Shown here: positions 3,861 through 33,175 of the stretch, piece after piece
How the letters are laid out: each line of letters begins with the position of its first letter
How positions within the stretch are numbered: the stretch's first letter is position 1
Source: a virus
Taxonomy: Duplodnaviria > Caudoviricetes
Length of the DNA: 64,000 nucleotides
Virus record (IMG/VR): IMGVR_UViG_3300044652_000025
Location: 32,001 to 96,000 of that record
Reading direction: 5' to 3' (one strand)
Position numbers and translations under genes: made by a program
Notes under the pieces: model-generated
The model's input: only the letters and a program-made list of their open reading frames with translations
The model's database searches: none
Told to the model about the DNA's origin: nothing

Positions 3861-4106
3861 CTACTCGGCACCTGCTCCCAGCAGCATGCGGCGGATGGAG
3901 GCGGCGGCCTCTTCGGCCGTGAAGGCGTAGGTGGTCAGGGCGTGGGCCAGGATGCCGTCCTCGGCCGCCTCGGCCTTCCAGGGGGCGTAGAAGCCCCGGC
4001 CATCCGGCGGGGTGTCGTTGTGCTTGAAGACCCGGATCTTGTAGTTGGCCTCCGGGTACTCCTCGCCGTCGTACTCACCGGCCGGGATCGTGACCTCGAA
4101 CTCCAT
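3861..4106 (-). CDS. hypothetical protein, 81 aa
   Basis: ORF track; CCGACTACAGGAG leader. Confidence 0.75.
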   Translation of the reverse strand: MEFEVTIPAGEYDGEEYPEANYKIRVFKHNDTPPDGRGFYAPWKAEAAEDGILAHALTTYAFTAEEAAASIRRMLLGAGAE

Positions 4107-4417
4107 GCGCTCTCCTGTAGTCGGAGTTTGGATGGGCGGCGCCGCTCAGTCGACAGCCGCCCGTCCCCTAGTCAGCCTTTCCGGTCGCTTCCCCCCAGAG
4201 CGTCACCGAGGTGACGAGTACGGGCTGGCAGTTAGTCCGGCGTGACCGTGCAGAGCGGGGAGCCGGGAGGAGGAGTTTCCTGCTCCCCCCGACACTCATA
4301 GATTACCCGCTACAAGAATTCTAACGCACCGATTACTCGGTCATATCGGGGCAGATCTACTGCCTCATCGAAAAATGATGGGTGGCCGAGACGAGGCCCG
4401 GCCACCCTGGTGCGACC

Positions 4418-18231: not shown

Positions 18232-18594
18232 CTATGTCCCAAGCTCTTCCTCGACTCCCGTCGCCTTCCGGAGTGCGGCGATCTCTTCGGCCGTACCCTC
18301 GAACTCCTCCAGGACGTCGGCTAGGGCCTCAGTCATGGCGTTCAATTTGATGTGGACCGCGTCCTCGAAACGCTGAGAGGAGTTCTGGAGCAGGGCTACC
18401 ATGAGGAAGGTGATGATAGTGGTGAGGGTGTTGATGATCAGCTGCCAGGTGTCGACCGTCAGGCCCAGGAAGATGGTCGGCGCCCAGAGGACCACCAGCG
18501 CACAGCAGGCGGCGAAGAACCACGCCCGGCTGGCCTCTCGGCTGGCCACCTCGGCGAAGCCGTCGAAGACACCGCGCTTCTTGGCCTCAGGCAT
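18232..18594 (-). CDS. low-affinity iron permease family (Fet4-like) membrane protein
   Basis: TWQLIINTLTTIITFLMVALLQNSSQR..A.HIKL signature. Confidence 0.85.
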   Translation of the reverse strand: MPEAKKRGVFDGFAEVASREASRAWFFAACCALVVLWAPTIFLGLTVDTWQLIINTLTTIITFLMVALLQNSSQRFEDAVHIKLNAMTEALADVLEEFEGTAEEIAALRKATGVEEELGT

Positions 18595-21500
18595 TGACCG
18601 CCGTCCTCTGCATCCTGACCGTCTTGAACGGCCCCCACTGCCAGCGGACCTGGTACGAACGTGGCCCCTCCCAGTAGCGCTTCCAATCCTCCTCGGTCGC
18701 CGTGTTGCGGTCCGGCTCAGGGTTGGCCTCGACGGCTCGCTGTTGAGCCCGATCGAGGGGGACGGCCTTGGCCTGCTTCCAGCCGGTCATGAGCAGCGGC
18801 GTCCCCTTGGGAATGTCGATCTCCTGCTCCGAGAGGTAGCGCCAGTCGTTCGACGTGTAGAGCGTGGCCGGGCTGTTCATGTCGATCTCGGCCCGGAGGA
18901 CCGTCGGGACGTAGGGCTTGCTGGGGCTGTACTGGCTGGGTCGCCCCGGGACGTTCTGACCCTCGAACCCCGCCATGCCCCGCTCGGCGATGGCCATGGC
19001 CGTCTTCTCGCTGGTCGACCATGAATAGCCGGTCCCGCCGGTGTCGGCGTGGGCCGCCGTCGTGGGATCGGCTCCCGGCGGCAGGCTGATGCCGCGGTAG
19101 ACGATGGCGATGTGCGGCGCGTTCGGCTTGGTCTGGAGCGTCGGCCACCGGTCGAAAGTGCCCGGCGTCTTCTCCGGCACGATGCGGGCCATGTTGACGG
19201 CGATCGAGTACCACATGCCCTCGTTGTCCCGCTGGCGCCAGGCGTCGTAGAACTCACGGAGCGGCTGATCGTGGCCGTAGCCCTTAGGCTGGCCCCACTG
19301 CATGTTGGCGTCGGGCGCGGTCATGAGGATCCACCCCTGATCGCCCCCACCCTTGAGATGGAAGGTGGCGTCGGACCACGCCGGAGGCTTGCCTGCCAGA
19401 TCGCGCTTGGCGGCCTCGGTGACCTCCTGGATCGCCTCCATCGGATCCACCGTGAAGGGGAGCTTGAGGGTAGCCAGCTTGAAGCCCCCGAGACCGCCCC
19501 CGGCGCCAGGTCGGGGCTCGATGATCACCTGGAAACTGGGGTTGGCGTAGTCCCACCTCTTCTCGACGTTCCAGTCGCCCCACTCCTTGACCTTGAAAGG
19601 GGCCGCCGTCTTCGCCGTGACCTCGCTCCAGGCCCGGCCCTGGTCACTGAGCGTCTTGGAGTGGTGGAGGTCCGGCTTGACCTCCTTGGCCCGGCGGAAC
19701 AACTCGGTGGCCAGGCCCATCCTCTGGTACTCCGGCCGGACGTTGATCTGCATGATCTCGCCGTCCGGGTACCAATAGATGCGTCCGATGGCCATCTTGG
19801 ACGCCTCCCGCACCTCAGGGAGGTAGGCCGACACCGTGTTCTTCTTCACCTCGAAGTAGAGGTCGGGGATCGTCTTCCAGGCGTCGGACGCCATGGCCGT
19901 CTTCGAGGCTGCCTTGGTGTAGTCGAAGGACCGCAGGTAGTTCCCAAACTCGGCCCGGGACCCGAAGCGCCGATGGTCGTAGGGCTGGCCGTCCTCGCGG
20001 TTCACGTCGCAGTAGAAGTCCTTGAGGTCGTACTCCTGGATGAGGGTGGCGATGGCCCGGCGCTGATTCGGGGTGGGGATGATGAAGTCCTCGTCCTCCG
20101 ACAGCCGCCACTCCAGGCCCAGGTAAGGGTTCGCATACATCGATCGCCGCGGCTGGACGACGAAACGGATGCTGCCCTCCCGCCAGGCTTGGCTGTAGGC
20201 CGAGCGCCCGGATCCTGAGGCGCCGTAGTCCTCATGGGCATCGACGGCGACGATCTGGCCGTCGGTCTTGATCCAGCCCGGGACGGTGTTCTCGGGGAAA
20301 TCGACCTGGCCATCGGCCCACTCAATCCACTGACGGGCGGGCATGGTGCCGTGGAGCGCCGACGTGAAGCCCTCGGGGTGCTCGTAGGTGTAGAGCTTCC
20401 GCAGCGTCTGGTGGACCTCGGTGGCCAGGTTGTAGAACCGGTCGTCGTGGGTTGTCTCATCCTCGTAGCGGCCTGCGCCACGGAGCACATGGTCGAGGTG
20501 GTGGGCGAACTCGTGGGCGATGAGCCCTTCCAGATTCGAGTCCCGGAAGTTGAAGATCTTGATCTCCGGCACCCGGATCACCCCGCCGGTCGCCGCCTCG
20601 CAGTCGTAGTTGGCGGCCTGGCCGATGTTGCCGAACGACATGGAGATCCGCGGCTCGGGGACGTGGTAGTGGTCGGCCAGCATCTTGACCATCTGGCGGG
20701 CGTACCAGTCGGAGTCCATCTTCTCGTGCCAGGACGGCTCCTCGTAGTCCCCCCAGGTGTCGGCGAAGTTGGTGCCGTGCCACTCCCGGAGCTTGGCCCG
20801 GTCCCATGGCCCGGCCGCGGCCTTGGAGAGCCGGAGCCGTGACGGTGGGATCGGGTCGGTGGTGTACCAGGAGTAACCCTTGATCCCGACGCGGTCGCGC
20901 TCCTTCTGGGCGACGTTGTTGGCCGGGTCGGGCATGAGGGTCAACCCGTTCAGGTCGACCTGCCAGATGTCGACGGGGACGGTGGAGCGGTCGACGACCC
21001 TCTGGGCATCGGCCAGGTCATCGAAGACGTAGTTCCCCGCCGGGAGGAAGTCCTCGTAGAACCCCTTGAAACGATCAGTGCCCCGCGAGCGGTCGAGACC
21101 GTGCTGGAGGATCGAGTCGCGTAGATCGCGGCGGGTGACGTGGTAGCCGACCTGAGCGGCGGCGATCTTGGCGTTCTGGGTCTTGATGTAGGCGGGTTGC
21201 TCCAGCATCTGGACCGACTCGACGTAGCGGACCATGTTGCGGCCCTGGGACGGCGACCATGAGATCCCGTCCTGGGTGATGTACTTGCCGGTGGTCAGCC
21301 ACTTCACCAACTCGTCCCAGGACATCCCGCCCTTGAACTTGTAGTAGCCGCCGTCGCGGGCGATGACCTCGTCGGCCTGGCGCAGCACCGACTCCGGGAC
21401 GTCGAAGGTGATGAGGACCGGCCCGCCGCCGCGCTTGAGGATCTGCTCCTTCAGCCAGGGATGGAGGCCCTCGACCGTGGCCCCGAAGAAGTCCTGCTTC

Positions 21501-23509
21501 ACCCGCTCGGGATAGAGCGTGAGGTAGGCCGCCTTGAGGGCGTCGTAGAGCGGGGCGCTCCCGGCGTAGGCGTAGCCCTCGGCCCGAGCACGGTCGGCGG
21601 TGAGGTAGAGGTTCCTGGTCGTCCCTTCCTTACGACGCTGCTTGGACCAGTTCTGCTTCTTCCAGACCGACCCCCGGGGCAGCTTGAACTCGTCCTCGAT
21701 CTGGTGGCAGAGCTTGAGAGGATCGATCGGCGGCACGAAGCCGTTGCGCTTGATCTGCTCCCAGGCGTTGAGCGTCGTGCCGTGGTACATGACCAGAGAC
21801 GGCTCGTCAGGTGACTCGATGGAGACGGCCTCGACCGATGCAGCCCGCCGGTTGAGGTGCTCGGCCTCGGGGATGTCCGACATCTCCCGCGGTCCCCAGT
21901 CGGAGCGGGCGCCAACCACTCTCGACCAGGCCAGTCCCGCAGGGGTGCGGTCCGACTCGGGGGCGTGCTCGACGTGGCCGAGGTCAGCCCTGGCCCGCTC
22001 CAACATGGCGGTGGCGATCCCCTGACGCTGGTACTGCGGGTCCACCACGGCCCTGTAGATCTCCCAGCCTCCATCGATCTCCCTGAGCCGGAGGGTCCCC
22101 ACCGGCTGATCGCCGATCGAGGCGACGTAGGCAACCCCGCCCTCCCAAGGCTTGGTGGCGATGATGAGGTCGGCGCGGGCGGCCGTCAGCTTCTGGGGCT
22201 TGCGGTACTGACCCCCGAAGCCGTTCGGCCCGCTGTTGACCCGATTCCACGACGGCGGCATCGACTCGGCCAGGCCCTGGCCCTCGGGCGACATGAAGGC
22301 GCTCCAGAGCAAATAGGTGCCCTTGTTGACCTTGGCGTCGGACTGGTCTTTGGCCCACTGCGCCATGGCCTGGGCGATGCCCTGGCCCCGGAGTGAGGGG
22401 TCCACCTGGACGTGGTAGACCGACCAGCCCCACCGGCCCATGTACCACTGCCGCCAGAGGACGAGGTGGCCGATGGCCTGGCCGTCCTTCCACGCCTCGA
22501 CCACCACCTGATCGACCTGTGGGTCGAAGGGCGGGGTGGCCTTGAACGTGACCCCCGCCGGTGCCGTGAGCTTGGCCGCCGCCCGCCGGTTGAGGTGGTG
22601 CTCCTCAGGGATGTCGCTCATCCGCCGCTCGGCCTCGTCGTAGTCATGCTCGGGCAGGACGGCGTAGACATGGAGGGTGCCGTCGACATGGGGGTAGAGC
22701 AGCAGCCGGGACGGCCCTTCCAGGCGCACCCCGTAGGTCCCGGCCAGCGGGCCGGTCTTGGCTTCGAGGTTCGCCCGGCCCGCCTCGATGGCCTCGACAG
22801 CCTGGCGGACCAGCTTCTGGAGGTGGGGGTCGGCCCGCTGGAGATCCTTCAGGCCGACGCGGTCGAAGTTCACCTTCCAGGGCTGGTGCATCTCTCTGGG
22901 CGTGAGAGCGTCGTCCTTGAACTCCCAGGGGATGACGCCAGAGGACGGACCTGCCGTCCTCTGGCTGATTTCCTGCCCGTCCAGACCATGACACGGCCCG
23001 CGTCGCCAGAGCCTGACTGAACTGGCCCCGACTCGCCCAGGCTCCTCCATCATACGGCTTGCCTTTGTAAGATCGATCACATCTACTTCCATCGATCTCA
23101 TTTGGCGCAATATGCACCCTTCTAGCCGATGATGGCCGTCCCACAAAAAGAGCTTGCCGTCCGGGGTTCGGATAGCGATGGGGATGTAGCCGGGCCGGTA
23201 CCAGGCGCTGTCGCGGTCGAGGCCGTGGATCACCGCCGCGACCGATGAGCGCTTGAGGTACTGCTTGGTGGCGATGATCGACTGGGTCGGGACCATCATC
23301 CGCTTGCGGGGTAGCCGGTCGAGTTCGGCCTCGTCGAAGTCGTCCCGGATGTCGTCCTCGAAGGGGGCCGACCCTCGGATCGCGTCGTCGACCCACTCGC
23401 CGTCGACCATCATCCCGCCCATGGTCGGCTTGGACTTGAGCCGGGCCAGAGCCGCGGCCTGCTGGTCGTTTTCGGGCTGCCAGCGGTCGACCTTGGGATT
23501 GGGCGCCAT
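18587..23509 (-). CDS. 1640-aa polyvalent multidomain protein (ParB/Srx, RelE-like, 3 GNAT-like, 3 ART-like, zincin)
   Basis: WDGHHR; VDPSLRGQGIA / VDPQYQRQGIA / VRPEYQRMGLA; YHGT, YHVT, VYRG..SWST..EQEI; AHEFAHHLD. Confidence 0.85.
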   Translation of the reverse strand: MAPNPKVDRWQPENDQQAAALARLKSKPTMGGMMVDGEWVDDAIRGSAPFEDDIRDDFDEAELDRLPRKRMMVPTQSIIATKQYLKRSSVAAVIHGLDRDSAWYRPGYIPIAIRTPDGKLFLWDGHHRLEGCILRQMRSMEVDVIDLTKASRMMEEPGRVGASSVRLWRRGPCHGLDGQEISQRTAGPSSGVIPWEFKDDALTPREMHQPWKVNFDRVGLKDLQRADPHLQKLVRQAVEAIEAGRANLEAKTGPLAGTYGVRLEGPSRLLLYPHVDGTLHVYAVLPEHDYDEAERRMSDIPEEHHLNRRAAAKLTAPAGVTFKATPPFDPQVDQVVVEAWKDGQAIGHLVLWRQWYMGRWGWSVYHVQVDPSLRGQGIAQAMAQWAKDQSDAKVNKGTYLLWSAFMSPEGQGLAESMPPSWNRVNSGPNGFGGQYRKPQKLTAARADLIIATKPWEGGVAYVASIGDQPVGTLRLREIDGGWEIYRAVVDPQYQRQGIATAMLERARADLGHVEHAPESDRTPAGLAWSRVVGARSDWGPREMSDIPEAEHLNRRAASVEAVSIESPDEPSLVMYHGTTLNAWEQIKRNGFVPPIDPLKLCHQIEDEFKLPRGSVWKKQNWSKQRRKEGTTRNLYLTADRARAEGYAYAGSAPLYDALKAAYLTLYPERVKQDFFGATVEGLHPWLKEQILKRGGGPVLITFDVPESVLRQADEVIARDGGYYKFKGGMSWDELVKWLTTGKYITQDGISWSPSQGRNMVRYVESVQMLEQPAYIKTQNAKIAAAQVGYHVTRRDLRDSILQHGLDRSRGTDRFKGFYEDFLPAGNYVFDDLADAQRVVDRSTVPVDIWQVDLNGLTLMPDPANNVAQKERDRVGIKGYSWYTTDPIPPSRLRLSKAAAGPWDRAKLREWHGTNFADTWGDYEEPSWHEKMDSDWYARQMVKMLADHYHVPEPRISMSFGNIGQAANYDCEAATGGVIRVPEIKIFNFRDSNLEGLIAHEFAHHLDHVLRGAGRYEDETTHDDRFYNLATEVHQTLRKLYTYEHPEGFTSALHGTMPARQWIEWADGQVDFPENTVPGWIKTDGQIVAVDAHEDYGASGSGRSAYSQAWREGSIRFVVQPRRSMYANPYLGLEWRLSEDEDFIIPTPNQRRAIATLIQEYDLKDFYCDVNREDGQPYDHRRFGSRAEFGNYLRSFDYTKAASKTAMASDAWKTIPDLYFEVKKNTVSAYLPEVREASKMAIGRIYWYPDGEIMQINVRPEYQRMGLATELFRRAKEVKPDLHHSKTLSDQGRAWSEVTAKTAAPFKVKEWGDWNVEKRWDYANPSFQVIIEPRPGAGGGLGGFKLATLKLPFTVDPMEAIQEVTEAAKRDLAGKPPAWSDATFHLKGGGDQGWILMTAPDANMQWGQPKGYGHDQPLREFYDAWRQRDNEGMWYSIAVNMARIVPEKTPGTFDRWPTLQTKPNAPHIAIVYRGISLPPGADPTTAAHADTGGTGYSWSTSEKTAMAIAERGMAGFEGQNVPGRPSQYSPSKPYVPTVLRAEIDMNSPATLYTSNDWRYLSEQEIDIPKGTPLLMTGWKQAKAVPLDRAQQRAVEANPEPDRNTATEEDWKRYWEGPRSYQVRWQWGPFKTVRMQRTAVNA

Positions 23510-25993: not shown

Positions 25994-26701
25994 TTATCGG
26001 GCAAAGATGAGGAGCACCTCCGCCTCGGCCCGGGACTCGTGGTTGGCACCGCGCCTCATCCTGGGGGTGACGATCTCGTGGCGGGCGATGAGCGTGAAGC
26101 CGATCGACTCGCAGATCGATCGATGGGTCTCGACGACGGGCTCTCTCCGGCGCTGACCGCGGTGGGTCCGGTAGCAGTCGCTGACGTTGAGGACGAACGT
26201 CCCCGACCGGGTGAGGGGATCGTAGGGCCGCAGTACCCGATAGACCTCCTGCCAGGCGGCGTCGTGGAAGCGCCAGTAGGCGGGCTGCCAGCAGTAGAGG
26301 GTGCCGCTGTTGGCGGGATCCAGGAGCCGGGTCTCGTCGCCGGTCATCCGCCGGAGGTCGTGGGTGTAGCTCCGGCGGTGGGAGCCGTCCTTGGCCATGT
26401 GGGAGTCGGACATCCTGTTGCCGAACACCGGGCTCACCATGACCGCGTCGATGCTCTCGTCCTCGAAGGGGAGGGCCAGGGCGTTGCCCACCCGGGTGTG
26501 GGGGTGACAGGCCGCCCACTCCGGCTCGATCTCGATACCGATGGTCTCCCGCCCGGCCTGGGCCAGGTCATGGACGCGTCCGATGCCCGCCATGGGGTCG
26601 AGGACGACGCCGGTGTCGGGGAGGATCTGGTGGTTCGCGATGAAGCGGAGGATGGCCTGGCTGTACGGCGCCGGGTGGATGGGCTTGGTGGCGGTCGTCA
26701 T
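25994..26701 (-). CDS. SAM-dependent DNA amino-methyltransferase-like protein
   Basis: VLDPMAGIG, GIEIE, GNALALPF, SPVF in place of SPPY. Confidence 0.75.
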   Translation of the reverse strand: MTTATKPIHPAPYSQAILRFIANHQILPDTGVVLDPMAGIGRVHDLAQAGRETIGIEIEPEWAACHPHTRVGNALALPFEDESIDAVMVSPVFGNRMSDSHMAKDGSHRRSYTHDLRRMTGDETRLLDPANSGTLYCWQPAYWRFHDAAWQEVYRVLRPYDPLTRSGTFVLNVSDCYRTHRGQRRREPVVETHRSICESIGFTLIARHEIVTPRMRRGANHESRAEAEVLLIFAR

Positions 26702-28719
26702 CGTCTCCTCCGGGCCGGTGACGTCGGCATCCCGGGCCTGCGCCTGCCCTTGCCGAAGCCCGAGAGGGCATCGTGGGTCTCGGTCTGCTGGCCACTGTGG
26801 GGCAGGCCACCCTGGGCGGTCCCTCCCACCGGTAGCTCGGCCAGGGTCTTGCCCAGGAAGGCCGCGATCTCGGTGCCGATGAGTTCGTAGGTGCAGATGG
26901 CCAGGCAGTCACTCACGTCTTTCGTTTGTACCGGTCCTGAGGTGGGGTGGTCAACCTTGTTTGTTCCCGCCTCCTGGAGGAAGGTCAACTCCAGGTCCGC
27001 CAGTTCGTGATACGGAGCATGGACGAGTCCCAATCCCAAGGCCGTTTTAAATGTTTCATACGTCTTCCAGTTCAAAGGACCAGTAGCGTCCCGCTCGTAG
27101 ATGGTAACCCGCTTCGGGTAGTTAGCGCTACGGGCGTGCTTACGGAGACGCTGGATCAAAGCCACAGAGTTCCACTGGTCGAAGGACAATTCGTTCGGCA
27201 TGAAGGCGTCCATGTCGACGATGATGTCGTCGGCGATGGCGTCGTAGTCGATCTCGTGGTTCTCGTAGTCACCCGGCAGCCAGGCGTGGATCTTGTCGAA
27301 GACGACGTGCGGGAGACCGCGGTCGTCGTGCCCGGCGACGTGGGCGATGGCCCAGCCGAAGTTGGCGCCGCTCTTGGACGGGTCGCCGTGGGCTCGGTAG
27401 GTCCGACTCAGGATCCCTTGGTGCTGCATCGTCAGGACGTCGCTCTCGGTCGGCCAGGGCTTCCACATGTCAGCGATCCGGTCCGGCCGGAGGTACGCGT
27501 CCAAGACGCTGGCCCAATGAGCGCGCCGCTCGACGGCGAACGTTTCAGGATTGGCAGCTTCTAACCGCTGCATCTCGGCGTCGAAGGTCTGGACCGCGTT
27601 GCGCAGGGCCGGGAAGAAGATCGGCCGCGACACCTGGGGGACGGCGTCGCGGATGTGGGCCGGGGGTGGGATCACCCGCTCCGGCCGGGCCTCCAGCCGG
27701 TGGTGAGGATCCGCGGTGCGCTCCCAGTCAACGTAGGTGTCCCAGCTTGCCAACTGGGCCATGAAGAGGGCCGGGAAGCTCGGCTTGCCGTCCTCATCGT
27801 GCTGGAGCGCCTTGCTGTAGTTGTCGAAGAACGCCCCCAGCCGCTGCCACGGCGACGACGCCTCCCACAGGAAGCCCCACTGCTGGAACTGGTCGAGGGA
27901 CGGGACGGCCGACTCGTAGACCTCGCTGGCGTCGGCCTTGGCCACGGCCCGGACGACGTGCGCCATCTCATCGAAGAACAACATCGCGCTGGCCGGGCCT
28001 CGGGCGGCCATCGTCGTTGCCTCTCTGGCCTCGATGATGAAGGTGGCCATGTCGGCCTCGGTCCCGATGCCTCGGTCGTGGCGGTCGAGCATCCTGATGA
28101 AGTCGTGCGGGGCGTAGACGGTGAAGCTCTCCCCCAGGACCCGGCTGATGTAGGGAGCGAAGCACGGCGCCCCGACGATGACGTTGTTCAAGTCCTTCCA
28201 CTGATGCGCTCGGGCCTGCTCCCGCTTACCGGCGAAGGCCATGGTGGCGATCTGCTTGTCGCGGTCGATTCCGAAGTGACCTTGCGGGTCTCCGAGCGAC
28301 AGGTAGTTCCACAAGACGTACGACCCGGCCAGGGCACCGAGGTAGCCCTTGCCGCCACGTCGACCGATGGGCAGGACCACCTCTCTGAACCACTTCCGGC
28401 CCTCGGCCTTGTTGATCTCGATCCGCTCGAAAATGTCAACAACGAGACCGTTGTTGCCCTCGCCCCGTTCGTCAGCCGACTCCCGGAACTTCGTCGTCCA
28501 TTCGTCAACGACCTCGTAGTCGTAGTCGGTCAGCAGGTCGTCACGAAGGAAAATCAACTTCAACAATGTGGCTTGCCTCGGGTACAGCGTCCGGCCCAAA
28601 TATGCGTCCGAGAGAATGAACTCAATCGGGTCCGGGACCTGAGCCTCAAATCCCGCGACGAGTTCAAAGACCCGCAGGGGGTCGAGGTCGGGCATGAATC
28701 GTCGGGTCCTGGCGGGCAT
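26698..28719 (-). CDS. terL: terminase large subunit
   Basis: YPRQ, GRRGGKG Walker A, LFFDE Walker B, HGDP / FDQWN / KDVSD RNaseH-type nuclease residues. Confidence 0.88.
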   Translation of the reverse strand: MPARTRRFMPDLDPLRVFELVAGFEAQVPDPIEFILSDAYLGRTLYPRQATLLKLIFLRDDLLTDYDYEVVDEWTTKFRESADERGEGNNGLVVDIFERIEINKAEGRKWFREVVLPIGRRGGKGYLGALAGSYVLWNYLSLGDPQGHFGIDRDKQIATMAFAGKREQARAHQWKDLNNVIVGAPCFAPYISRVLGESFTVYAPHDFIRMLDRHDRGIGTEADMATFIIEAREATTMAARGPASAMLFFDEMAHVVRAVAKADASEVYESAVPSLDQFQQWGFLWEASSPWQRLGAFFDNYSKALQHDEDGKPSFPALFMAQLASWDTYVDWERTADPHHRLEARPERVIPPPAHIRDAVPQVSRPIFFPALRNAVQTFDAEMQRLEAANPETFAVERRAHWASVLDAYLRPDRIADMWKPWPTESDVLTMQHQGILSRTYRAHGDPSKSGANFGWAIAHVAGHDDRGLPHVVFDKIHAWLPGDYENHEIDYDAIADDIIVDMDAFMPNELSFDQWNSVALIQRLRKHARSANYPKRVTIYERDATGPLNWKTYETFKTALGLGLVHAPYHELADLELTFLQEAGTNKVDHPTSGPVQTKDVSDCLAICTYELIGTEIAAFLGKTLAELPVGGTAQGGLPHSGQQTETHDALSGFGKGRRRPGMPTSPARRRR

Positions 28720-28740
28720 CGTTATCCACTCTAAGTGAAA

Positions 28741-28767
28741 CGGTCGAGGGCTTCATACCCTCGACCG
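28741..28767 (-). terminator. intrinsic terminator closing the RAMP-array operon
   Basis: 10-bp perfect stem CGGTCGAGGG/CCCTCGACCG followed by TTTCACTT on minus strand. Confidence 0.85.
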
Positions 28768-28778
28768 CTCCACCCATG

Positions 28779-29333
28779 ACTGCCATGCCGAACTCGAACC
28801 TGACGAGCATCGCCGCGCCAAGCCCCGCCGACCCACGCCTTGACTGCCGAGTCGAGACCAGCCTACGCCCGCCTAACCGCGGCGAACCCAGCCCTGACTG
28901 CCGAGCCATTCCACGTCCAGACACGCCGTGCCATGACTGCCGCGGCACGACCCGCCTCTCCTAGCCTACGCGTGCCTCACCTCTCCGAGGCTGCCGGGCC
29001 AGGCCCAACCATCGCTGGTCAAGCCCAGCCAAGCCGCACCCTGACTGCCTCGCCCTAACGGGCCATGCCTGTCCATGCACCTCCTCAACGGGCCGTACCT
29101 TGCCACTGCTGCCAGGCCAACGCCTGCCGTGATGTACCAAGCCCTGCCGAGACGAGACCGTCCCCTCCACACCGCTACTGCCCTGACCTACCGGGCCTAG
29201 CCTCTACACGCCCGTCCTAGCCATTGCTGGCGAGCCGAGCCGAACCGCTCCATGACCTTGCGCACTTGCCCTGCCATACCAAGACTGCCGAGCCTTGCCG
29301 CGGCCTGCCTAGCCTCACCAAACCGAGGCTGCC
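28779..29333 (-). ncRNA. guide-RNA array 2: 10 units of GGCA+(GGY-like NN)n
   Basis: Delimiter spacings (+ strand order) 64,54,39,54,54,64,69,49,58,44; 5-nt periodicity; no credible ORF. Confidence 0.85.
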
Positions 29334-29337
29334 ATTC

Positions 29338-29364
29338 ACCGGGGCCGGTGGCTCCGACCCCGGT
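29338..29364 (-). other. RNA hairpin between accessory gene and array 2
   Basis: 11-bp stem whose one mismatch is a G-U pair only on the minus-strand transcript. Confidence 0.7.
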
Positions 29365-29370
29365 CGCTGG

Positions 29371-29871
29371 CTAGACCGCCTCGGCCTCTCCGTCGTCGTC
29401 GTCGCGGTCGATGTCATCGAGCGCGGCCCAGACTCCGGCCAGAGCACTGAGGTGCCGGTACCGGCGCCGCAGAGCCTGGAGGGCGACCAACGCATCTTTG
29501 AGCATCTGATTTCTCAGATCCTCGCGGTCGACCACCGTCTGAGTGTTGGTGTAGCCACGGTCACCGTCCTTCCGGACCGAGACGAAGGCGACGATGGGTT
29601 CGTCACTGCCCTCGACCACGATGCGGATGTCTCTGATGATCCGGCGAGCCTGACTCAGCCAATACTGCTCGGCGGCGTGGTTTTTGTCCCACCCACGCCA
29701 GTCGGCCATGTTGTGCAACGGCGAGTTGCGCTTCTTGGCCTCGGCTACCAACGCGTGCGGGGTGCAGACACCGTCGCGGTCCTCGATCTTCTTGATCTCG
29801 CCGTAGACGATGTTGGCGTCGACACCATGGCTCTGCTTCCACGACACGAACGCTGTCGGTTCTCCACTCAT
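29371..29871 (-). CDS. accessory protein of the RAMP-array system, 166 aa
   Basis: AAAGGAGG RBS; TP..LV..A...SPLH...W....AAEQY.L.QARRII motif; sits between the two arrays. Confidence 0.85.
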   Translation of the reverse strand: MSGEPTAFVSWKQSHGVDANIVYGEIKKIEDRDGVCTPHALVAEAKKRNSPLHNMADWRGWDKNHAAEQYWLSQARRIIRDIRIVVEGSDEPIVAFVSVRKDGDRGYTNTQTVVDREDLRNQMLKDALVALQALRRRYRHLSALAGVWAALDDIDRDDDDGEAEAV

Positions 29872-29893
29872 TTTTCAATCACCTCCTTTCGAT

Positions 29894-30929
29894 CCTGCCG
29901 TGACAAGCCAAACCGATCCGGGCCAAGCCCAAACGGGCCTAACCGCGCCAAGCCACGACTGCCGTTACCAACCCGGACCTGCCTGGCCGAACCTGACCGG
30001 GACGAGCCTTGCCTGGACTGGCGAGGCTTGCCGGGCCGTAACACGACTAGACCGGCCTATCCCTGCCCTGACTGCCATGCCTAAACCTGCCCTGGCTTGC
30101 CATGACGACCTAGCCCTACCACTGCTGCCGTGACCAGCCTGGCCGGTCCACGACGCTCCTAGCCGAGCCGTACCTTGCCTCGTCTGCCACGCCCTGCGAA
30201 GCCATCGCTTGCCCATCCTGACCATGGCTGCCGAGCCGGGACCGTCCCAAGCCGGGCACACCTAGCCACTCCATGACTGCCAAACCGGGACCTGCCTGGC
30301 CTGGACACACCTGGCCGAGCCGACCCGCACCTTGCCACTGCTGCCATGACGAACCGCTCCATGCCGTTGCGTGCCGCGACCTGCCAAGCCTTGGCGAGGC
30401 TGCCGAGACCTGACTGGCGACGCCAAGCCGGGCCTGGACATCCCGCGCAACGCCCTGACTCGACTGCCCTGCCAAACCCATCCGGGCCGTGACATGCCAC
30501 CCGAGCCGTGCCTGGGCTGCCGTGCCGCACCTGACCTCGACGGGACCAGACCATCCTGGCCCAGCCAAGCGCAGACCCGCCTCGACTGCCCTACCTCGCC
30601 AAGCCCTGCCTCGGCCCGACCCGGAGATCCAGGCCGAGGCTGGCTGGCCACACCGTGCCTCGACGCTGCGAGACATGCACCGCCTAGCCCATCCTCTACT
30701 GCCATGACCGGCCATGCGTTGCCACGGCGAGCCTTGGCCGGACCGGACCTGACGATCCAAGCCCAACCATGGCTGCCGCTCCACTGCTGCCCTGACAAGC
30801 CTTGGCTCGACGTGCCCCTGCGGGAGTCGCCGGGCCAAGCCACTGCTGCCATGCCGTGACCCGCCATGACATACCGGGGCGCACACCGCCCATACATGAC
30901 CGGGCGAGCCGAGCCATGCCGTGTCTGCC
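29894..30929 (-). ncRNA. guide-RNA array 1: 18 units of GGCA+(GGY-like NN)n
   Basis: Delimiter spacings (+ strand order) 64,59,54,53,59,44,49,64,59,64,53,69,54,59,74,14,59,79. Confidence 0.88.
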
Positions 30930-30954
30930 AAGGGGTCACTTACTGCTCCGGGTC

Positions 30955-31593
30955 CTAGTTGCTGACCTGGAACATTCCGTACGAACCGGACGCCGACTTC
31001 GGCGCCGACGGCCGCCACTCACCAACCCCACCGAGACCGGCGGCGTCGACCAGAGCGAAGACCGACGAGGCGTCGAGCATGTGCGGCAGGTACGTGACCT
31101 TGAGGATGGCCGACCACGGCCAGAAGCCAGCCCGGTAGCGGATGTCAGCGACACCCGACTCCAACCTGACCATGTCCTCACGCATGTGAGGCTCGGCCGA
31201 AATCGCCACCAGGTCGGTCCCCTCCTCGGGGTTGATGAAGAGGGCGGCCTTGGCCTGGACCATGGTCAAGCCGTCGAAGTGCCTCACGGCGCCGACGAGA
31301 GCGGCCTTGAAGGCGGTGGCGGGGATGGCGCAGCGGCCGTCGGGGAGCCGGTAGATGGACGACTCGTAGTCGGCCTGCGGGTCCTTCGGCTCCTTCTTCG
31401 GCTTGGTGCCGCGAGCCATCTGGCTCTCCAACATCATTCTCTTGGCCTTCTCGGACCAGCGGTGGGTGATCAACTCGGAGGTGCCCTCGATCGGGACCTC
31501 GATGGTGACGCGCTCCAGGCGCTTCAGGACGACGGTGGGACCCTCGGTGACGCCAGCGACCTTCCCGGCGCCATTGGTTTTGGTCATTGCCAT
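30955..31593 (-). CDS. Cas7/RAMP-like RNA-binding protein (Vipr-like), 212 aa
   Basis: IEGTSELITH first strand, IPATAFKAAL helix, C-terminal Gly loop GLGGVGEWRP...GSYGMF; ATG 31593 with CAGGAG RBS. Confidence 0.8.
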   Translation of the reverse strand: MAMTKTNGAGKVAGVTEGPTVVLKRLERVTIEVPIEGTSELITHRWSEKAKRMMLESQMARGTKPKKEPKDPQADYESSIYRLPDGRCAIPATAFKAALVGAVRHFDGLTMVQAKAALFINPEEGTDLVAISAEPHMREDMVRLESGVADIRYRAGFWPWSAILKVTYLPHMLDASSVFALVDAAGLGGVGEWRPSAPKSASGSYGMFQVSN

Positions 31594-31661: not shown

Positions 31662-31735
31662 CCGGGGTCCTTCGGACATATGGGCGCGAAAATGCCCCCT
31701 CCACTGGGGAAGGGGGCGAGATCCTGTCTTCTCTG

Positions 31736-32194: not shown

Positions 32195-33175
32195 TTACTT
32201 CTTCTTGCGGCTCTTCGGGATCGGGAGCTTCTTGACGTCGCTCCCGGCGATGATCCCGGCGTTGTAGTGCTTGGCCAGGGCGTCGGCGATGGCCCGCGGC
32301 TTGCTGGTGTAGTGCTCCTTCGAGTTGCGGATCGGGTCGGCCAGCGCCGATGGCGGCCACTGCCGGAGCGTCACGATGAGGTGACCCTCGTCGAACAGCG
32401 GGGTCTTGACCAGGCCGCCCTGCTCGTCGACCGACAGCTTGGTGTAGCGCCGGACGAACTCCCCGACGGACTGGAGCGTGAGGTACGCCCAGGCGTCCGG
32501 ATACTGCTGCTGGACCCAGGACTTGTTGATGACCCGGAAGACCGTGGCCAGCCCGTCCTCGCCGATGGTGGCGTACATCTTGCGGAGCGCCTTGACGGCG
32601 GTGATGCCACCGAGACCCACGGTCAGGCCGTTGTCGGAGGCGATCCGGTCGACGGCCACCGCCTCGGGGTCACCGGCCTTGAGGTCGGTCTTGTAGAGGT
32701 CCGTCGGCGAGAAGCTCGTCCGGCCCCGGTGGATGGTGCCGGTCTGGTTGGCCTCGGCACCGACGCTCATACCCTTGTGGACCCAGCAGGGCACCTGCAT
32801 GTCCGGGTTGATGATCTGGGCCACGATGGTCCGGTGCTGGCCCTCGGGCGACCAGAGGCTGGCGTCGGGACGCTCGTTGACGTCGATGGGCTCGAAGGCG
32901 TAGGGGTCGAAGTTCCTGATCAGATCCTTGGCCTTCTTCAGGTTGATTCGCCGCTGGTAGCTCTTGTCGACGTTGATGTCCCCGGCCCGGACGTAGCGGA
33001 GTTCGCCGGTGAGCTTCATCTCCGCCAGTTCCTGGCGGCGCTCCTCGGGGATCTCCTTCTCGTACCAGTCGCGCAGGGCCTTGAGCTTGTCCTCCTCGGA
33101 CAGTTCGGTCCGGGGGCGCCTCGGGGTGGGAGTCTCCTCCTCGTCCGCGAGGTCGAGGTCGTCGTCTTCACTCAT
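32195..33175 (-). CDS. ParB/Srx-like N-terminal domain protein
   Basis: VDKSYQR..., IDVNER, EGQHR motif. Confidence 0.8.
   Translation of the reverse strand: MSEDDDLDLADEEETPTPRRPRTELSEEDKLKALRDWYEKEIPEERRQELAEMKLTGELRYVRAGDINVDKSYQRRINLKKAKDLIRNFDPYAFEPIDVNERPDASLWSPEGQHRTIVAQIINPDMQVPCWVHKGMSVGAEANQTGTIHRGRTSFSPTDLYKTDLKAGDPEAVAVDRIASDNGLTVGLGGITAVKALRKMYATIGEDGLATVFRVINKSWVQQQYPDAWAYLTLQSVGEFVRRYTKLSVDEQGGLVKTPLFDEGHLIVTLRQWPPSALADPIRNSKEHYTSKPRAIADALAKHYNAGIIAGSDVKKLPIPKSRKKK

Follow-up and report, generated by a model that had tools for sequence, protein, structure and literature searches.

We analyzed a 64,000-nt stretch of a viral genome (the window) and found that P0001, a small protein encoded between two guide arrays, is very likely a functional accessory protein of a VIPR system. 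VIPR was first described in 2026 as a CRISPR-like RNA-guided DNA silencer (10.64898/2026.04.26.720920), composed of a minimal Cas7-like protein (Vipr), vrRNAs that consist of GGY/NN pentamers and skip 1 nt in reading DNA, and an accessory gene, vap (10.64898/2026.04.26.720920; 10.64898/2026.04.26.720927). These preprints distinguish seven VIPR types and six vap classes, among which are predicted DNA binders (WH-like or HTH-like) as well as nucleases and helicases (10.64898/2026.04.26.720920; 10.64898/2026.04.26.720927); the vap of types II, VI and VII are among the predicted DNA binders (10.64898/2026.04.26.720920). P0001 is the Vap of a non-type-II, staggered-array VIPR clade. Taken as a whole, the best explanation is that it is a VIPR Vap acting as a nucleic-acid-binding partner that strengthens silencing, a reading to which we give slightly better than an even chance. 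The category to which P0001 belongs was already published in 2026, and what we add is mainly descriptive: the definition of a very large Vap family, phrog_15946, with its motif and a predicted winged-helix-like fold; its reciprocal linkage to Vipr and its association with staggered GGCA|G arrays; and its distinctness from SUSP1 Vap1, the sole Vap studied experimentally. The role of VIPR accessory proteins is treated as an open question in the 2026 VIPR preprints.

The window is part of a 151-kb virus record judged complete, and DNA near-identical to it was found in soil metagenome runs. The features of the locus are collected in Table 1. The open frame of the vipr gene extends back beyond the tabulated start to a GTG at 31704. 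Its product matched phrog_4652 (E 1.9e-35), the same PHROG that is matched by SUSP1 agp039 (E 1.4e-96), and a profile made from relatives of the window vipr product also matched agp039 (E 2.4e-18). The AlphaFold model of the window Vipr (AF2; pLDDT 92.0) resembled the structures of Csm3, Cmr4 and type VII Cas7 by both Foldseek and VIA-align. Foldseek gave 82 matches at E <= 0.001, with Csm3 at E 1e-6, while VIA-align reached Z 11.1 to Cmr4/Csm3 and its best 30 rows were all CRISPR RAMPs. The relatives of Vipr share a conserved glycine-rich motif, GxGGVGEWRP. A sequence search of the PDB returned zero matches for either Vap or Vipr.

Both array stretches are non-coding and carry GG on the minus strand with a period of 5 nt (lag-5 autocorrelation of 0.38 for 29872-30954 and 0.31 for 28720-29370). 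Each unit starts with GGCAG and has a length of 5k+4 nt (49, 54, 59, 64 and so on), and therefore neighbouring units are shifted by one base, so that the register slips 1 nt at each GGCA|G junction. The two arrays are of the published "staggered" GGY-NN type, a layout included among those of fig. S18 of the VIPR description (10.64898/2026.04.26.720920). Since 5-nt GG-period staggered arrays occur here together with a phrog_4652 gene whose model is Csm3/Cmr4-like, we conclude that the locus around P0001 is a VIPR system. The staggered layout was also common in loci linked to the P0001 family: adjacent phase changes were present in 126 of 157 array-bearing loci, 339 of 391 phase changes were of -1 nt, and GGCAGG was enriched ~30-fold within the arrays.

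Table 1. Features of the VIPR locus in the window
Feature	Position	Strand	Basis or remark
vipr, 212-aa Cas7-type RAMP	30955-31593	(-)	ATG at 31593, AGGAG upstream
vrRNA array 1, between vipr and vap	29894-30929	(-)	~18 staggered GGY-NN units, GGCA|G junctions
vap ribosome-binding site AAAGGAGGTG	29880-29889	(-)	read directly from sequence
vap gene, 166-aa P0001, family phrog_15946	29371-29871	(-)	ORF, profile match, model
Stable stem-loop across the vap stop codon, leading into array 2	29322-29385	(-)	folding
vrRNA array 2, downstream of vap	28779-29333	(-)	~10 staggered units
Terminator-like GC-rich hairpin, then UUUCACUU	28735-28773	(-)	end of array 2, just before the terminase-large-like gene

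The original prediction, made from the DNA letters, had described a gene of this size between two guide arrays, with its own strong ribosome-binding site and a strand-specific hairpin behind it. The setting was as described: the 166-codon frame has no internal stops on translation, G-rich minus-strand arrays of 5-nt period flank it on both sides, and the GGAGG within AAAGGAGGTG is spaced 10 nt from the vap ATG at 29871. The hairpin was also found, folding as minus-strand RNA at -44.2 kcal/mol (z -5.2), but its strand specificity held only in part, as the opposite strand still folded, less well, at -37.2 kcal/mol (z -3.4). The region after vap folded no better than control regions in 126 related loci (z below -2 in 6% versus 10%), and because of this the post-vap hairpin is a lineage-specific feature and not a trait of the phrog_15946 family. 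The terminator-like hairpin at the end of array 2 is stable (-46 kcal/mol, z -6.1) and was not called by a consensus terminator scan. A simple promoter and terminator scan saw neither element within the VIPR locus, and an Rfam search of the window matched zero families.

The same prediction had taken the protein for an accessory partner of the RAMP system and had named co-occurrence with the RAMP gene as the way to check this. Among 50,697 GenBank phage records, the same 33 carried both a P0001 relative and a Vipr relative, and in all 33 vap followed vipr on the same strand at a distance of 30-400 nt. These carriers were 27 Mycobacterium cluster F phages, 5 Gordonia phages and the cyanophage Cy-LDV1; in Mycobacterium phage Pippy, gp48 is 56% identical to the window Vipr and gp49 is 36% identical to P0001. 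When IMG/VR loci were chosen by the Vap motif PLHxxFEWD, 75 of 80 had a same-strand vipr homologue, and GG-periodic arrays lay on the same strand in 66 and on the opposite strand in 2. Species-representative genomes gave a further set of 80 loci, from which we counted the 54 with at least 1.5 kb of flank on both sides; vipr was present in 53 of these complete loci and same-strand arrays in 52, with no opposite-strand arrays (0/54). The Vap carriers among the species representatives included Alphaproteobacteria, Actinomycetes, Acidobacteriota, Bacillota, Chloroflexota, Planctomycetota, Bacteroidota and Methanosarcinales contigs. In the reverse direction, among complete loci chosen by Vipr alone, a phrog_15946 Vap lay no more than 2 kb from vipr, and on its strand, in 54 of 58 cases. 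Linkage is thus near-absolute both ways and the linked neighbour is a Cas7-type RAMP, which bears out the predicted partnership; such a partner is what the published category vap denotes. The prediction's narrower roles (a cap or small subunit, an RNA-processing factor or a target-loading partner) stay candidates. Four Vipr-selected viral loci with enough flank (L211, L218, L227 and L230) had no phrog_15946 Vap within 2 kb; these may have a different accessory gene, or lack one.

We also compared the pairwise-distance matrices of Vipr and Vap, which were correlated with a Mantel r of 0.62 (maximum 0.15 in 999 permutations). As far as sequence distances go, this correlation shows inheritance of the two genes as one module and is not evidence of contact between their products. 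The order of the elements varied among loci. In about half, vap begins directly at the vipr stop or overlaps it (ATGA/GTGA), with the arrays behind vap, while in ~40% an array lies between vipr and vap, as in the window. The cyanophage Cy-LDV1 (L005:2069-3648) has the order vipr-array-vap-array, the same as that of the window, and therefore the architecture spans very distant hosts. On two Methanosarcinales MAG contigs (L121 and L133) the vap and vipr homologues are adjacent, and one of them, L121, also has arrays.

Given these findings, VIPR systems are present in cluster F mycobacteriophages and in several Gordonia phages; no actinophages are named in the main text of 10.64898/2026.04.26.720920. 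Both groups of phages can be grown on laboratory strains, and presence of the module in them makes its function open to direct testing. Two annotated genes of such phages coincide with arrays. The CDS of Pippy gp47 (L001:3994-4182) lies almost wholly on a GG-periodic staggered array at 4035-4231, and that of gp40 of Gordonia phage UmaThurman (L003:2647-2970) lies almost wholly on a staggered array at 2629-2959; both are annotated as 'hypothetical protein' and both are probably vrRNA arrays mis-called as genes. In the Gordonia phages ODay (L004:1289-3830) and Ecliptus (L006:1240-3677), the module consists of two HTH genes, vipr, an array, vap and one more small gene, positioned between the tail assembly chaperone and tape measure genes, and it looks like a mobile cassette inserted in a structural operon.

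P0001 matched phrog_15946 (E 3.7e-23), with residues 25-146 aligned on profile positions 14-135 of 151, and all 129 relatives taken from linked loci matched this PHROG and no other. An ordinary homologue search with the P0001 sequence recovered only P0001 itself, and an exhaustive search was needed; it identified at least 7,147 cluster representatives at E <= 1e-3, with 1,166 at E <= 1e-10. A search for related loci with P0001 as a single sequence found none, while small alignments retrieved loci. Judged by the phrog_15946 match and by this number of matching representatives, the ORF is a real gene. Relatives are nearly all 140-190 aa long. Five residues are invariant in the family (P51, L52, H53, W61 and D62) and seven more are at least 90% conserved (F56, E57, A66, R71, Q74, A75 and Y107); the family motif, PLH..(F/A)(E/D)W..WD, lies within an insertion at residues 46-64. 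P0001 is a divergent member whose best relative is 47% identical, and it departs from two near-invariant columns (F56 to A and R71 to W). With a median pI of 6.2, the family is mildly acidic. P0001 ends in an acidic C-terminal tail, which is not a family trait, since a net charge of -3 or lower there was found in 26% of members. We found neither the PLHxxFEWD insertion nor a family of this size (at least 7,147 cluster representatives) in the accessible text of 10.64898/2026.04.26.720920.

The AlphaFold model of P0001 (pLDDT 93.2, pTM 0.83) is alpha/beta, with 4-5 strands and six helices. The protein had earlier been called helical; the helices are there, but it is not all-helical. By DSSP, the model runs from a strand (7-11) through H1 (19-33), a bridge at residue 36, H2 (38-45) and the 19-residue PLHxxFEWD loop to H3 (65-81), which is followed by strands at 82-86, 96-101 and 104-109 and by helices at 117-137 and 142-165. 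These elements form a winged-helix-like domain (~7-115) and a C-terminal helical hairpin (117-165), and their topology in the model fits the winged-helix order H1-b1-H2-H3-b2-wing-b3. H3 would be the putative recognition helix and has a conserved Arg and Gln in the family. The canonical short turn between H2 and H3 is absent, and the conserved 19-residue insertion at 46-64 stands in its place. VIA-align of the model against 48,161 chains gave Z values of 4.1-5.6, a range (under 8) that may reflect a common arrangement alone and not kinship, and most of the 50 matches listed were winged-helix domains, including those of IdeR, Zur/Fur, MecI, FoxP, ArgR, SelB and Z-alpha as well as the WH domains of cullin and ESCRT-II. 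Foldseek returned the same winged-helix theme weakly (E at least 0.4), and in BFVD the clear matches were uncharacterised phage proteins only.

We compared the model with the winged-helix domains of four bacterial regulators, IdeR/DtxR (4o6j), Zur (7vo0), MecI (1okr) and ArgR/AhrC (2p5k). P0001 shares with them an H1-strand-H2-H3-beta hairpin arrangement (VIA Z 4.7-5.2 over 62-71 aligned residues), but unlike these regulators, which have a tight H2-H3 turn, the P0001 family has the 19-residue loop and is acidic overall. With Z values this modest, a loop in place of the canonical turn and a slightly acidic family, we call the N-terminal domain winged-helix-like and not a proven winged-helix member. 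Neither a nuclease fold or RNase nor, for the whole model, a Cas11-type small subunit was among the Foldseek and VIA matches listed, and a Pfam search of P0001 matched no family, nuclease families included. This agrees with the earlier remark that no nuclease motif is recognisable, and P0001 is probably not a nuclease.

The published vap1-6 are described as small genes in an operon with vipr and vrRNA arrays, mostly borne by phages or prophages, as is the gene of P0001 (10.64898/2026.04.26.720920), and the WH-like/HTH-like prediction for the Vaps of types II, VI and VII agrees with the predicted P0001 fold (10.64898/2026.04.26.720920). We compared P0001 directly with the type II protein of SUSP1, for which we took agp039 to be Vipr and agp038 to be Vap1, a presumption based on how the locus was described in print. 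agp039 is a RAMP-sized gene flanked by GG-periodic tracts, agp038 (NC_028808.2 28031-28471; 146 aa; phrog_5926 only) lies directly after it, and the two together fit the published 1,114-bp vipr-vap1 deletion. SUSP1 Vap1 and P0001 are of similar length (146 versus 166 aa) and occupy the same place, downstream of a phrog_4652 Vipr and beside vrRNAs. However, agp038 had no detectable similarity to the phrog_15946 family (hmmsearch E 0.06, hhalign probability 0.1%, different PHROGs), and each SUSP1 guide forms a unit of its own with a pseudoknot tail, whereas the P0001 locus has staggered GGCA|G arrays; no GGCAGG junctions were found in the SUSP1 locus. Homologues of SUSP1 Vap1 for a profile were limited to near-identical relatives, and a search of 400 genomes of the class that has a Paraburkholderia vap carrier gave no credible match to Vap1-like proteins. 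Of the residue numbers given in a figure legend of 10.64898/2026.04.26.720927, only H17 agrees with SUSP1 agp039, and the numbering in that legend may belong to another construct.

In type II systems, RNP assembly, vrRNA production and DNA binding require Vipr and vrRNA alone, while Vap1 boosts protection in vivo (10.64898/2026.04.26.720920; 10.64898/2026.10.15.759431). Deletion of SUSP1 vap1 lowered plaquing on satellite lysogens by ~10^4, and anti-satellite protection requires Vap1 together with Vipr (10.64898/2026.10.15.759431). Since Vap1 is dispensable for RNP assembly yet needed for this protection, P0001 might by analogy be an enhancer of silencing; the analogy is weak, as SUSP1 Vap1 is not detectably related to the P0001 family. 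That P0001 would enhance Vipr-guided silencing by binding is a tentative mechanism, to which we give slightly less than an even chance. From phylum to phylum, the loop and the putative recognition helix (R71, Q74, A75, R76) hardly vary, from which we infer that Vap would bind a constant nucleic-acid or protein feature of the VIPR system; the recognition helices of sequence-specific repressors are not near-invariant across phyla. Candidate targets would be the Vipr-vrRNA-DNA R-loop or triplex, flanking DNA, the GGY repeats, or Vipr or its filament itself, and Vap bound there may stabilise or extend the RNA-guided silencing of rival phages. Several points weigh against an enhancer that binds nucleic acid. 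The winged-helix similarity of the model is modest (Z under 8) and the inserted domain could mediate protein contacts instead; an acidic family (median pI 6.2) is unusual for DNA binders, and P0001 itself has lost F56 (to A) and R71 (to W); and the linkage and co-divergence of Vap and Vipr can be explained by co-inheritance alone. Prediction of a Vipr and Vap complex gave a score of 0.00, which is below the mark and speaks neither for nor against binding.

We weighed four other explanations against this one. Vap could be a maturation or loading factor of the staggered arrays, with a Cas6-like job: it would read the GGCA|GG junction or the GGY repeats, and would then cut at that place or fix the register in which Vipr assembles. 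The family does go with staggered arrays and GGCAGG junctions, which SUSP1, with its different Vap, lacks; the P0001 gene sits between two arrays; and the conserved polar residues H53, D62, R71 and Y107 resemble the His/Tyr/Arg-Lys sets that metal-independent RNases have. Guide maturation is also a real need, as hammerhead ribozymes are described between the guides of other VIPR types (10.64898/2026.04.26.720920). Nevertheless, neither a nuclease fold nor a nuclease motif turned up in the Pfam search or among the Foldseek and VIA matches listed, type II vrRNAs are reported to mature and load with Vipr alone (10.64898/2026.04.26.720920), and no dedicated enzyme would be needed if the filament halted where the register slips and host trimming came after, so we consider this role unlikely. 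In its most specific form, the PLHxxFEWD loop (H53 and D62, with R71 and Y107) would read GGCA|GG and cleave it or nucleate Vipr in phase; we think this quite unlikely, but if it were true, the phrog_15946 Vap would be a functional analogue of Cas6 on an unrelated fold. A distinctly unlikely alternative, to our judgment, is that Vap regulates transcription of the VIPR operon, or helps transcription to pass the G-rich repeats by binding the DNA of the arrays. A winged-helix-like fold is typical of repressors, the C-terminal hairpin of the model could dimerise as in a repressor, and vap lies within the very operon to be controlled. However, the near-invariant putative recognition helix suits a constant target over diverse operators (one that GGY repeat DNA could provide), separate HTH regulator genes are part of the ODay and Ecliptus cassettes, and vap1, though of a different Vap family, still enhanced defence when expressed heterologously from separate promoters (10.64898/2026.04.26.720920).

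The original prediction had also considered a cap or small subunit, and a structural part of the filament that docks on Vipr-vrRNA would account for the tight linkage, for the frequent overlap of start and stop codons, which suggests coupled translation, and for the co-divergence of Vipr and Vap; winged-helix domains often dock proteins, and those of cullin and ESCRT-II are among the matches listed. Cas11-type small subunits (Csm2, Cmr5 and Cse2) are likewise small proteins encoded beside Cas7-family backbone genes, but they are all-helical bundles, whereas the P0001 model contains a beta sheet. No Cas11-like helical bundle was among the VIA matches listed, a search that families absent from it would escape. 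SUSP1 and P. fulva RNPs purify as complete filaments, with vap1 co-expressed for P. fulva, and Vap is not mentioned among the modelled components in the accessible text (10.64898/2026.04.26.720927). A filament subunit therefore seems very unlikely to us. Finally, Vap might be an unrelated phage early gene and only a chance neighbour of the arrays, given that in cluster F mycobacteriophages the pair is surrounded by early genes of unknown function. Vap and Vipr occur together in 93-100% of cases in both directions, over actinophages, a cyanophage, many bacterial phyla and Methanosarcinales contigs, which makes this scarcely credible, and on account of the linkage counts we regard it as effectively refuted.

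We noted several further features of the arrays. The guide unit at 29900-29963 finds its best 1-nt-skip match in the window inside vap (29540-29575), where the conserved GY107 region lies; 17 of 24 informative positions agree there, and the best match elsewhere in the window is 16 of 24, a small margin. Among the guide units of relatives, 2 of 4 matches at >=18 positions fall within vap genes. The pattern is suggestive, though such cases are too few to carry weight. DNA contigs of four soil or rhizosphere runs were compared with the window and proved fragmentary and of low depth. Contigs from other soil or rhizosphere metagenomes skip 87 nt (30242-30330) and 127 nt (30476-30604) of array 1; each skip was seen in a single contig, at low depth, and the skips may mean that related phage populations have gained or lost guide units.

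The genes around the operon were also inspected. A 673-aa gene right after array 2 (26698-28719, minus strand) is weakly terminase-large-like (phrog_9, E 2e-4) and had no Pfam match. A terminase small subunit flanked by pac repeats had been a candidate identity for P0001 and was dropped once the linkage to Vipr and VIPR appeared. Downstream of the terminase-like gene lies a DNA methyltransferase-like gene (25994-26701, minus strand), and upstream of the VIPR operon a ParB-like DUF6551 gene (32195-33175, minus strand). The window also encodes a 1,640-aa protein (18587-23509, minus strand) with GNAT acetyltransferase domains, which is unusually large for a phage gene.
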